Shown piece after piece: positions 46,201 to 49,200 of a DNA stretch of 64,000 nt (position 1 is the stretch's first letter; every line of letters begins with the position of its first letter). This DNA is from Escherichia coli O157:H7 (lineage in GTDB: Bacteria > Pseudomonadota > Gammaproteobacteria > Enterobacterales > Enterobacteriaceae), in the NCBI RefSeq assembly GCF_013167455.1, contig NZ_CP038328.1. One strand, written 5' to 3'. The position numbers were made by a program.

Positions 46201-49200
46201 TTGGCGATAGGTCACTGAATCCGTATACATCCTGATACCGTGATATACCCAATGCGTCGTTATGCGCTGTTATGGTTTGCCATCTTTTGCCAGTTTTTAA
46301 CGTGTTAATCCTGTTTATACCGATTTATAACGATTAATAACGGTGAATAAATTTTGCTGGTGGGGGATGTATGGGGATTACAGCCCCGTGAATACAGGGC
46401 GTGTTGGCTGGTTAATCTGCCTGGCTTACTGCCAGTAATGCGGCTGATATTTTTTGCATAAACGTGGATTTGGCTAGCCCTTTTGGCGATATCCCTTTCT
46501 CCTTCATCAGCGCTTCCATGTCGCGGTAAATGGCTGAACGGTTTGGTTCTCCGTCCTGAATGTATGCGGTTGTGCCTGATTTTTTCACGAGGAGTAAAAC
46601 CAGCAACCCCATCATCTTCATGTTTCCCTGTTCTTCGTCGAGTTTCCTGTGCTGCCCCCTTCCGCTGCGGCTTGTTTCTTTGATGTAACGGACCAGATCC
46701 CGCCCGCCAAGATTAAGGGCTTTTTCCTCCCAGTTTTTTGTCCCACGCAAATCATCGATAGTATCTGTTACCGCCTTGATTATTGCCTCTGGCGTGCCTG
46801 CCTCCATGAACGGGAAGGAAGCAAGGAATATATCCCCCGCTCTGTATGGCTCATCCTTGCTTGTTTTTACTCCACTATGCAGCCTGATAGCACGTGCGAT
46901 ATGAGTTCTGGCTGATTCGACCTGTTCGAACTTGTCCTGCGGTACGTCGCCTATCCTCATTGACGGATTAAGATCAGCTAACGCAAGGGCCATTTCGTGG
47001 GGAGTGATTGAAACAGAAGCGCAAAGGCGCTCTATTGGCGATTTCTTCAGGATGTTAATCATGATTTAGCCCTTCTGATTGGTGTCACGTTGTAGTGTTC
47101 TCCGCGTTCCAGCGACACTAACAGAGTGGTCCACTTCGCCAGTGCGTCCCGTCGTTCATTGAAATACTGATAGCGGTTGTATATGCCTTCGACTCCCTTG
47201 ATGCGGTGATTGAGGCATCTTTCAGCGACTACCGGATCAACACCAAGCGCAGCTAGATGTGTGCGTGCTGTACGGCGGAAGTCGTGAATAGTGAAATTTG
47301 GAACTTCCGGCATCTCTGCGCGGACTTTTGCCAGCGCAACAGGTAGGGTGCTCTCCTGAATGTGGGGGATCATCCTGTGCTGCATTTTCCGCGCCGGAAG
47401 CACCCAGGCACTATTGCATGACAACACACGCAACTCTCGCAGCCATTCAATAACGGGATGGACGAGTGGAATATCGATGGGGTCGCCGTTTTTGCTGCGT
47501 TCCTCCGGCAGATGCCATACAGCGTTATCAAGGTCGAATTCTTCCCATCTGGCGGCGCACAACTCCATCTTCCTGACACAAAGCGCCAGCAATAGCTTAA
47601 ATGTGAGTTCATTCTCGCGGCTGAAACCCTTTGCGGTCCGCATAGCCTGAAAGAATCGGATTAGCTCTTCACGAGTCAGCCAACGGTCGCGGGAGGACTC
47701 CTTGCCACCAGCATCAGAGACTTCAAACGCAGAGCATGGGTTAATCTCCAGCACATGACGTTTTACCCCGTAGTCGAATATGCGGCGCGTCCAGCGTAGA
47801 ACGTCCGTTGCAATGGTTGGCGCTCCACGGTCAACAATTGCCTTTAGCATCTCGTCAATGTGTCGTGGTTTTACGTCCTCAGCCTTCATATGACCAATAC
47901 GCGGGTTTATGTCTTTGTCGATGCGACGGCGCAGGATGTCGGGATGTTTCCATCGTGGCAGTATCTGACGTTCGAAATATTCGGCAGCAAGCTCTGATAC
48001 GCGCACGGCCTTTTTTTCTGCCTCAATTTTTGCCAGGGCTTCGGCCTTACGCTCCTGTTTCTCTGCTGCTACGTCGTACCCAAGTGCGACGCGAGCGGAT
48101 AGTTCCTTTGCTGTTTCTCTGGCTTTTGATAGCGAGTAATCAGCATAGGAACCAATGACCATTGCCCGTGCTTTTCCTGCGAATTTGTAGCGGAATCGCC
48201 ATGTTGGTATCTGGTCTTCTTTCCGGTAACGAAGGTATAAGCCACCGCCATCTGACCGCCCTTCGAATCGTTCACCTGATTTTATCCATGCCCTGATCTG
48301 AATATCTGTGAGCTTTGGCATTAAGAACTCCTGAACATTGAATAGAGAGGTGTACCCAAACAGATGTTCCAAAATGCAATTGGGTACACCTTTGGGTACA
48401 CGCTAATCATGCGCTTTCTTGCGTCGTTATGATAGCCATTAATTACAAAAAAACCCGCATTATCGCGGGTTTGATTGAATTATTGCGCTTTATTGATTCC
48501 CTCTGATAGCTTACTCCACATTTTGAATCTGCTCGCGCATCTGCTCAATCAACACTTTCAGCTCAATCGCGGAGTTTGTCACTTCGGCATTGATAGACTT
48601 CGACGCAAGAGTGTTCGACTCGCGGTTGAATTCCTGCATCATAAAGTCCAGACGACGACCAACGGCTTCTTTTTTCTTCAGAATGTTGTAGGTCTCTTTG
48701 ACATGCGCTTCCAGGCGGTCCAGTTCTTCGGCAACGTCAATTCGTTGTGCCAGCAGAACCAGCTCCTGCTCCAGACGGTTGTTTTCCAACTGAACCTGAG
48801 CATCTTCCAGCTTCGCGACCAGACGCTCACGCTGCCATTGCAGGATTTCCGGCATATGGGCGCGGACTTTGACCACTTCGGCGGTGACGCCTTCCAGACG
48901 CTGCTCGATCAATGCTTTCAGTGCCTGACCTTCGGTTTCGCGCGCGACAATAAAGTCGTCCAGCGTACCATCCAGCGCCGCGAGAATTTCAGCGGCAATG
49001 GCGTCAAGATCCTGCTCCTGGGCTGCCATCACGCCCGGCCAGCGTAGAATATCAACCGGGTTGATTTCCCCTTCGTCACTCTGCATTTTTACCCAGTTCG
49101 CGGCAGTTACCAGCTGTTTAGCCAGTTTTTCGTTGAGGATCAGCTCACCTTGCGCGCTAACATCTGGCTCATAGCGCAGGGTACATTCCACTTTACCGCG

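Follow-up and report, generated by a model that had tools for sequence, protein, structure and literature searches.

In a window of 64,000 nucleotides (nt) from Escherichia coli O157:H7 (RefSeq assembly GCF_013167455.1, contig NZ_CP038328.1; "the window" denotes this whole stretch), a 216-amino-acid (aa) orphan gene, here called X, overlaps the end of the tyrosine integrase gene (int) of a ~16-kb island that lies between dinD and yicC. X is a new family of an already described, mechanistically unexplained positional class, the "integrase overlapping genes" (iolg; protein, IOLG) of the PICMI (phage-inducible chromosomal minimalist island) satellites found in Vibrionaceae (Barcia-Cruz et al. 2024; PMC10803314). 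By analogy with the one class member whose function was assayed, we give an even chance to the reading that X is an accessory protein, co-made with the integrase (Int), that acts with Int and the excisionase-like AlpA in excision of the island. Coordinates of all features are given in Table 1.

X is a genuine gene under purifying selection, because its ratio of non-synonymous to synonymous substitution rates (dN/dS) is 0.14 (36 synonymous and 20 non-synonymous differences from a 93%-identical allele in other E. coli; int for comparison, 0.08-0.10), full-length homologues are conserved, and the structure model is confident; these three observations rule out that X is not a real gene. Homologues occur across Enterobacterales at 23-93% identity, full-length ones (206-241 aa) reaching down to 21%, and family motifs are T-P-E (residues 90-92), L-G-G (118-120) and SGRGxHRKxDE (133-143), with KPxxxxIYxD...GxxxSTFxxK at the C terminus. 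AlphaFold2, run on a diverse alignment, gave an all-alpha model of ten helices with a mean predicted local distance difference test (pLDDT) score of 90.5; the predicted TM (pTM) score of 0.60 would fit a flexible arrangement of domains. The median isoelectric point (pI) is 8.8, and that of the basic loop segment is 9.6.

A sequence-only reading of the window had proposed a 216-aa gene at 46412-47062, without naming a strand, that overlaps the integrase stop by 4 bp and is coupled to int in one transcription unit. The open reading frame (ORF) bears this out and lies on the minus strand, where the 3' end of int reads ...AAA TCA TGA with the ATG of X inside ATGA (47059-47062). A Shine-Dalgarno-like AGAAGGG is located ~8 nt upstream of this ATG, within int. 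In a consensus scan of the int/X junction no terminator was found between the two genes, and the sole promoter-like match was weak (9/12) and overlapped the X start codon. Translational coupling of X to int and a shared transcription unit are both supported. A longer, TTG-started int ORF that reaches 48372 is probably an over-extension. Relatives of the window integrase carry the Arm-DNA-bind_3, Phage_int_M and Phage_integrase domains (Pfam, orthologues).

No significant Pfam, NCBIfam or PDB-sequence match was obtained for the X protein or with an alignment of 25 members of its family, and none of these 25 gave a Pfam match at E<=0.001. X matches PHROG 30524, a family without assigned function, and PADLOC (PADLOC-DB v2) returned only a non-significant match to PDLC01076 ("DNA binding HTH"; residues 148-214, E 0.055; HTH, helix-turn-helix). 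Foldseek of the X model against AFDB50 recovered the X family only, all members being "uncharacterized" and coming from Escherichia, Salmonella, Citrobacter, Klebsiella, Serratia, Pectobacterium, Erwinia, Xenorhabdus, Buttiauxella and Gilliamella. The family comprises 18 clusters at 90% identity and is small, 1.84 billion proteins yielding 34 representatives of it. Searched against the PDB, a profile made from the C-terminal domain of X gave chance xylanase matches and no HTH proteins, and an iterative search with this profile returned only fragments of the X family; residues 185-207 align weakly to the HTH of AlpA (P 0.0018, 23 columns). The fold of X is without a known structural relative outside its own small family. 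Derivation of X from the integrase and homology of X to P4 cII were both considered and ruled out by hhalign (probabilities of 0.2% and 0.3%, respectively). The impression of the sequence-only reading that X resembles nothing recognised therefore survives database searches.

To compare gene surroundings, we used 12 further homologues (10 of the family and 2 remote; 21-76% identity) and a partial contig with a third remote relative. A P4-type integrase gene on the same strand immediately precedes the homologue in the window and in 10 other contexts (L002-L004, L006-L008, L010-L012 and the remote relative P0044), which makes 11 of 11 contexts with an intact co-oriented upstream integrase. The whole integrases carry Arm-DNA-bind_3 and Phage_integrase, and most also Phage_int_M. 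The gap between int and X is -4 nt in the window and -1, -4, +8, -1, +1, -4, +98, -4 and -4 nt in the L-loci in the order given, with +95 nt in P0044; an overlap of 4 or 1 nt is present in 7 of the 9 X-family loci compared, the gene in L007 (+1) being contiguous, not overlapping. Downstream of X, an AlpA/HTH_17 gene follows in every context but L010; AlpA was found wherever the sequence beyond X is informative. The X-alpA spacer measures 305-590 bp within the family and only 94-97 bp (to the alpA/HTH_17 gene) in remote relatives that share just the C-terminal domain. The sole real exception to the conserved position, P0049, sits in a decayed island remnant. Attachment sites of these elements vary (yicC, downstream of der, near lptFG; three contigs with the fis site also carry X), as do their replicases (P4 alpha-like primase, Toprim-DUF927, or PrimPol plus D5).

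In the metagenomic relative L007, Abi_alpha and Mrr_cat genes (1963-4895) are located between the X homologue and alpA, which suggests that the X-alpA spacer can serve as an insertion point for cargo or defence genes. X thus keeps its place beside int even where cargo has been added on its downstream side, and judged from these gene orders it is a predicted core gene of the integration module and not cargo. Separately, L002 (LR881103.1, "Escherichia phage vB_KppS-Ant", 16.5 kb), the only phage-collection record with an X homologue, is deposited as a phage, yet its genes are arranged as in a satellite that forms capsids: int, the X homologue, an alpA-like gene, then primase, capsid, portal and terS/terL genes and one annotated tape measure protein gene.

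The IOLG class is defined by position, and sequence homology is not part of its definition (PMC10803314). An iolg starts in overlap with the int stop, most commonly as ATGA, lies between int and alpA, and is of unknown function; among 35 PICMI subfamilies, 21 have an iolg that overlaps int by 1, 4 or 13 nt, and 4 have a contiguous gene instead (PMC10803314). These genes fall into 13 unrelated families, none with a known function, and PICMI115 lost helper-induced excision, packaging and transduction when its iolg was deleted, just as it did on deletion of int or alpA (PMC10803314). A full-text literature search found no other paper on integrase-overlapping genes. X has the same ATGA overlap, the same slot between int and alpA and the same strand; its element likewise encodes Int, AlpA and a primase and has no structural genes, as known from its genes alone; and X is itself an orphan without a recognised domain in a class of many mutually unrelated families. 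It differs in its enterobacterial host and in its larger, P4/PICI-like satellite (PICI, phage-inducible chromosomal island) at yicC, and the requirement for excision is known for the PICMI115 iolg only.

The same arrangement was recovered by scanning IMG/VR for the fis-type attachment (att) repeat listed in the supplement of PMC10803314, which gave 76 contigs. A P4-type integrase is encoded on 22 of these and is followed by a downstream ORF on 19, which overlaps int in 18 of the 19 (15 times by 4 nt, as ATGA, and 3 times by 1 nt). Each of the 20 contigs that extend far enough has an alpA-like gene, whose start lies 650-1100 nt past the int stop. The overlapping proteins are 121-302 aa long and form at least three families, two of them mutually related (hhalign 94%); for one representative of each of the two related families, the only ones scanned, Pfam gave no match. 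None of the fis-site overlapping genes matched the X profile except three true X homologues, and hhalign of X against the overlapping families gave P values of 0.05 (family a, C-terminal 60 residues), 0.39 and 0.58.

The slot also holds a further orphan, Y, of 293 aa in another yicC-site E. coli island (L021 4995-5876, E. coli 2017.17.03CC) and of 298 aa in an island of Pseudomonas laurylsulfatiphila (L022), where int is followed by Y (6001-6897) and then alpA. The Y family (293-298 aa; 96 clusters) ranges from Enterobacterales to Pseudomonas and has no Pfam and no PADLOC match. Comparison of X with Y by hhalign gave P 0.008 over the C-terminal 60 residues, which is not significant, and the Y N terminus (KEWLTLEEAAKRL...) weakly resembles that of the fis-site int-overlapping families (P 0.002-0.004). 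The alignments of X with Y and with family a are co-linear and C-terminal each time; a shared C-terminal module is possible but unproven.

How X may act can be framed on the proposal of the PICMI authors that Int and IOLG are constitutive, AlpA is phage-induced and the three form an excision complex, with the mechanism listed as open (PMC10803314). In the integrated state of the present island, the int promoter would drive production of both Int and X. Once a helper phage switches on alpA, joint action of Int, X and AlpA at the attachment sites would excise the island, and X might act in integration as well. X could be an accessory subunit of this complex, either a DNA-binding or architectural protein or a bridge between Int and AlpA. 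Candidate surfaces for contact with nucleic acid are the basic N-terminal region, the basic loop at residues 133-143, and a C-terminal helix-loop-helix, G195-x-x-K-S-T-F-x-x-K204. The basic pI, the weak alignment to the AlpA HTH and the weak PADLOC HTH match are compatible with nucleic-acid binding.

Of the roles raised by the sequence-only reading, recombination directionality is the best-supported direction, the sole tested class member being needed for excision (PMC10803314). That reading had missed both that AlpA, a canonical excisionase-like protein, is encoded 386 bp further downstream and that the arrangement had already been named. X is co-translated with int and therefore could not by itself give directionality through differential expression. 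Nor does X look like an excisionase of the AlpA/Vis/Xis kind (~60-100 aa, with a PF05930 or PF12728 match): it shares with these proteins a location beside a P4-type int within the integration module, a basic character and the weak C-terminal alignment to the AlpA HTH, but it gave no Pfam match, its 216 aa compare with ~70 aa, its model is all-alpha and multi-domain and not a winged helix, and a bona fide AlpA is already encoded just downstream. The gene directly downstream of int in P4, cII (264 aa, "sce7726 family"), resembles X in being co-oriented with int (66-bp gap), but the two are non-homologous, cII does not overlap int, and in P4 it faces the non-essential gop-beta region and not alpA/vis.

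Several points weigh against a role of X in excision. The functional argument for X is drawn, by analogy, from position only. Three PICMI subfamilies have no such gene at all, and the PICMI iolg deletion was complemented with an int/iolg construct (PMC10803314), so that damage to the overlapping 3' end of int is formally possible as the cause of the phenotype. X has no significant similarity to the int-overlapping families recovered here, the PICMI115 IOLG not being among those compared. In EcCIMP1, a characterised E. coli PICI, the slot between int and alpA holds only EcCIMP1_002, described as about 10% of the size of UvrB; considered as a relative of X, it is a different gene. Finally, at an Int identity of 91% the accompanying X alleles can share only 33% identity, a discordance not expected of a tightly co-evolving Int-binding subunit.

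Discordance of this kind is seen among yicC-site elements, whose integrases are 67-91% identical and whose X proteins, outside the close group of X, are 26-34% identical. Between L011 and L003, Int, X and AlpA are 91%, 33% and 59% identical, respectively, and the break in similarity between such elements falls in the last ~30 codons of int. Between L011 (yicC site) and L012 (der site) the values are 66%, 76% and 92%. As a side observation, the integrases of L011 and L012 are mosaic, with 96% identity over the first ~30 residues and only 36-70% in the catalytic core. In Mantel tests over 8 loci, X identity followed AlpA identity (rho 0.38, p 0.04), and no correlation with Int identity was seen (rho 0.04, p 0.39); the evidence for covariation of X and AlpA is weak because this sample is small. 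Such a link to AlpA counts in favour of the excision role. X evolves as a module separate from Int.

The X-alpA spacer bears on the alternatives to an excision role. The ~100 nt nearest to alpA show conservation across related elements (TCAATAGAAT and TTGATAGATTC motifs), and the X-proximal part is variable. In the window the spacer contains five tandem 10-bp repeats, which are candidate origin (ori), iteron or protein-binding sites. At the same place L002, L003, L004, L006, L011 and L012 each have an array of their own with a 10-bp period, of 3 to more than 10 tandem copies (more than 10 in L002) and with a repeat sequence that differs between elements. The L011 array is GTTCACCC x4, which resembles the iteron of the P4 alpha protein at ori, TGTTCACC. 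The P4 ori repeats lie upstream of vis, the P4 homologue of alpA, and resemble the spacer arrays.

An unlikely alternative is that X is a repressor or helper-phage sensor at the early/alpA promoter of the satellite, comparable to Stl of Staphylococcus aureus pathogenicity islands (SaPIs). X would then be constitutive with Int, bind the adjoining spacer and keep alpA silent until a helper product intervenes. Such a role would suit a basic protein with an HTH-like C terminus whose gene abuts a 386-bp spacer containing the alpA promoter region and element-specific 10-bp arrays, and whose alleles diversify like immunity or specificity determinants, tracking AlpA and not Int. Also in its favour, no global repressor is so far known for Gram-negative PICIs (PMC6092414). 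The island, however, already has RNA-based immunity of the P4 type (C4/isrK), and deletion of the PICMI iolg led to loss of excision, the opposite of de-repression. The alpA-proximal motifs are moreover conserved between elements with X alleles only 34% identical. The gap to alpA/HTH_17 is short in the remote relatives, and alpA is close in the fis-site satellites too; such short gaps therefore leave little room for a separately regulated promoter.

SaPI Stl has a canonical N-terminal HTH, is divergent from the genes it represses and binds a helper-phage inducer. X shares with it a position next to int, a similar size and fold class (~200-270 aa, all-helical), alleles that are highly divergent between related islands, and an expression that would likewise be constitutive in the integrated state. 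It differs in that no sequence or structural similarity between the two was found, no HTH domain was detected in X (Pfam; C-terminal profile against the PDB), and X is co-directional with alpA and the other downstream genes, not divergent.

That X is accessory cargo of a hotspot beside int, namely a protein that defends against phages or interferes with the helper, we regard as improbable. Regions adjacent to int are cargo hotspots of satellites, the Abi_alpha and Mrr_cat genes of L007 lie between the X homologue and alpA, X alleles diverge fast relative to the integrases, and other yicC-site islands hold a different orphan, Y, in the slot. The cargo or defence role offered by the sequence-only reading is nevertheless not supported by position: X is a fixed partner of int in every context with an intact co-oriented integrase, its place and coupling are invariant across genera and att sites, and the defence-like genes of L007 lie downstream of the X homologue, before alpA, and do not replace it. 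In addition, the sole PADLOC match is not significant, X is a single small helical protein without an enzymatic motif, and its short-range evolution is purifying, not diversifying.

Finally, X could be a replication or maintenance factor that binds the iteron-like arrays, in the manner of proteins at the P4 ori, because element-specific arrays of 10-bp period lie between X and alpA in every element and P4 ori lies upstream of vis; we consider this very improbable, since by P4 analogy the primase/alpha protein, and not X, would be what binds such iterons, and the remote relatives are almost without a spacer. The P4 ori iterons are bound by the P4 alpha protein, and by the same analogy the spacer arrays are more likely primase sites.

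Returning to the accessory role in excision, a broader idea, which we hold tentatively and think less probable than its opposite, is that integrase-overlapping proteins are a third, as yet unrecognised component of tyrosine-recombinase excision in phage satellites, namely fast-evolving, co-translated adaptors that connect Int to AlpA or to a helper signal. Satellites with a P4-type integrase and AlpA are very common in Enterobacterales and mobilise virulence regulators as well as defence systems; accounts of their excision usually name two proteins, Int and AlpA. If the idea is true, only the right helper would license excision, and these proteins would form a new class of recombination-directionality cofactors whose fold is new as well. 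The module of int, overlapping orphan and alpA is now seen in E. coli (including O157:H7, O145 and O111 strains), in many fis-site satellites and in a Pseudomonas island; the present island carries PerC-family genes in enterohaemorrhagic E. coli (EHEC) strains, and X sits in a genetically tractable host in which the excision question is directly testable.

Table 1. Features of the island in the window (positions count from the first letter of the window).
Feature	Position	Strand	Details
X, integrase-overlapping orphan gene	46412..47062	-	WP_000608238.1 ("hypothetical protein"); ORF and RefSeq annotation, 216 aa
ATGA overlap (int stop TGA / X start ATG)	47059..47062	-	4 nt
P4-type tyrosine integrase (int)	47059..48321	-	420 aa; RefSeq; PHROG 1 at E 1e-61
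X-alpA spacer	46026..46411	-	386 bp
Five tandem 10-bp repeats	46293..46342	-	CGTTATTAAT, CGTTATAAAT, CGGTATAAAC, AGGATTAACA, CGTTAAAAAC
AlpA-family excisionase-like regulator	45810..46025	-	next gene after X; PHROG 66 "excisionase and transcriptional regulator"
AntA/Bro-type antirepressor-family protein ("Bro zone")	44894..45742	-	
isrK	44096-44172	-	Rfam 52.1 bits, above gathering threshold
C4 antisense RNA	43982-44069	-	Rfam 73.8 bits, above gathering threshold
P4-family DNA primase/helicase (replication zone)	41127..42953	-	PHROG 864 at E 4e-188; TIGR01613
Three GGGTACAC copies, candidate Int arm-type sites	48350..48401	.	one inverted and two tandem; between int and att
Right copy of 10-bp direct repeat AGCTTACTCC, candidate att core	48508..48517	.	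overlaps yicC stop codon
Left copy of AGCTTACTCC repeat	32335..32344	.	dinD end of island

The window matches chromosomes of E. coli O157:H7 and other EHEC. The int-X-alpA segment was found in 91 of 5426 complete genomes; the att-proximal island segment occurs in about 446 of the 5426 E. coli genomes, the int-X pair in only 91. Similarity to E. coli genomes without the island sets in at 48511, and the att site involves no tRNA gene, the insertion being at the yicC stop codon. The AGCTTACTCC repeat, which bounds the island on both sides, was found by targeted comparison, a long-seed att search having given nothing. GGGTACAC occurs 4 times in the window (1.2 expected), and 3 of these occurrences lie between int and att.

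By its gene content the island is a predicted P4/PICI-like phage satellite that matches the four-zone plan of Gram-negative PICIs, in which integration is followed by Bro plus immunity RNA, replication, and late/accessory zones (PMC10111431). Orthologues of its AlpA carry PF05930 (Phage_AlpA). C4 and isrK, side by side, form the P4-type CI/seqA immunity RNA pair of the island; ash and icd-like genes follow between C4 and the primase in minus-strand order, and beyond the primase are genes for a single-stranded DNA-binding protein (SSB), a ProQ/FinO protein and PerC-family regulators, and then a degraded distal part that contains insertion sequences (IS). No capsid or tail genes were found in the island.

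A 343-aa ORF in the mechanical ORF list (43876-44907) overlaps C4 and isrK and is probably spurious. Near the PerC-family genes, in the distal part of the island, there are three direct repeats of ~62-65 bp and also three TTTTTGCGCACTTTTT-type copies (38824-39006 and 37363-37600).

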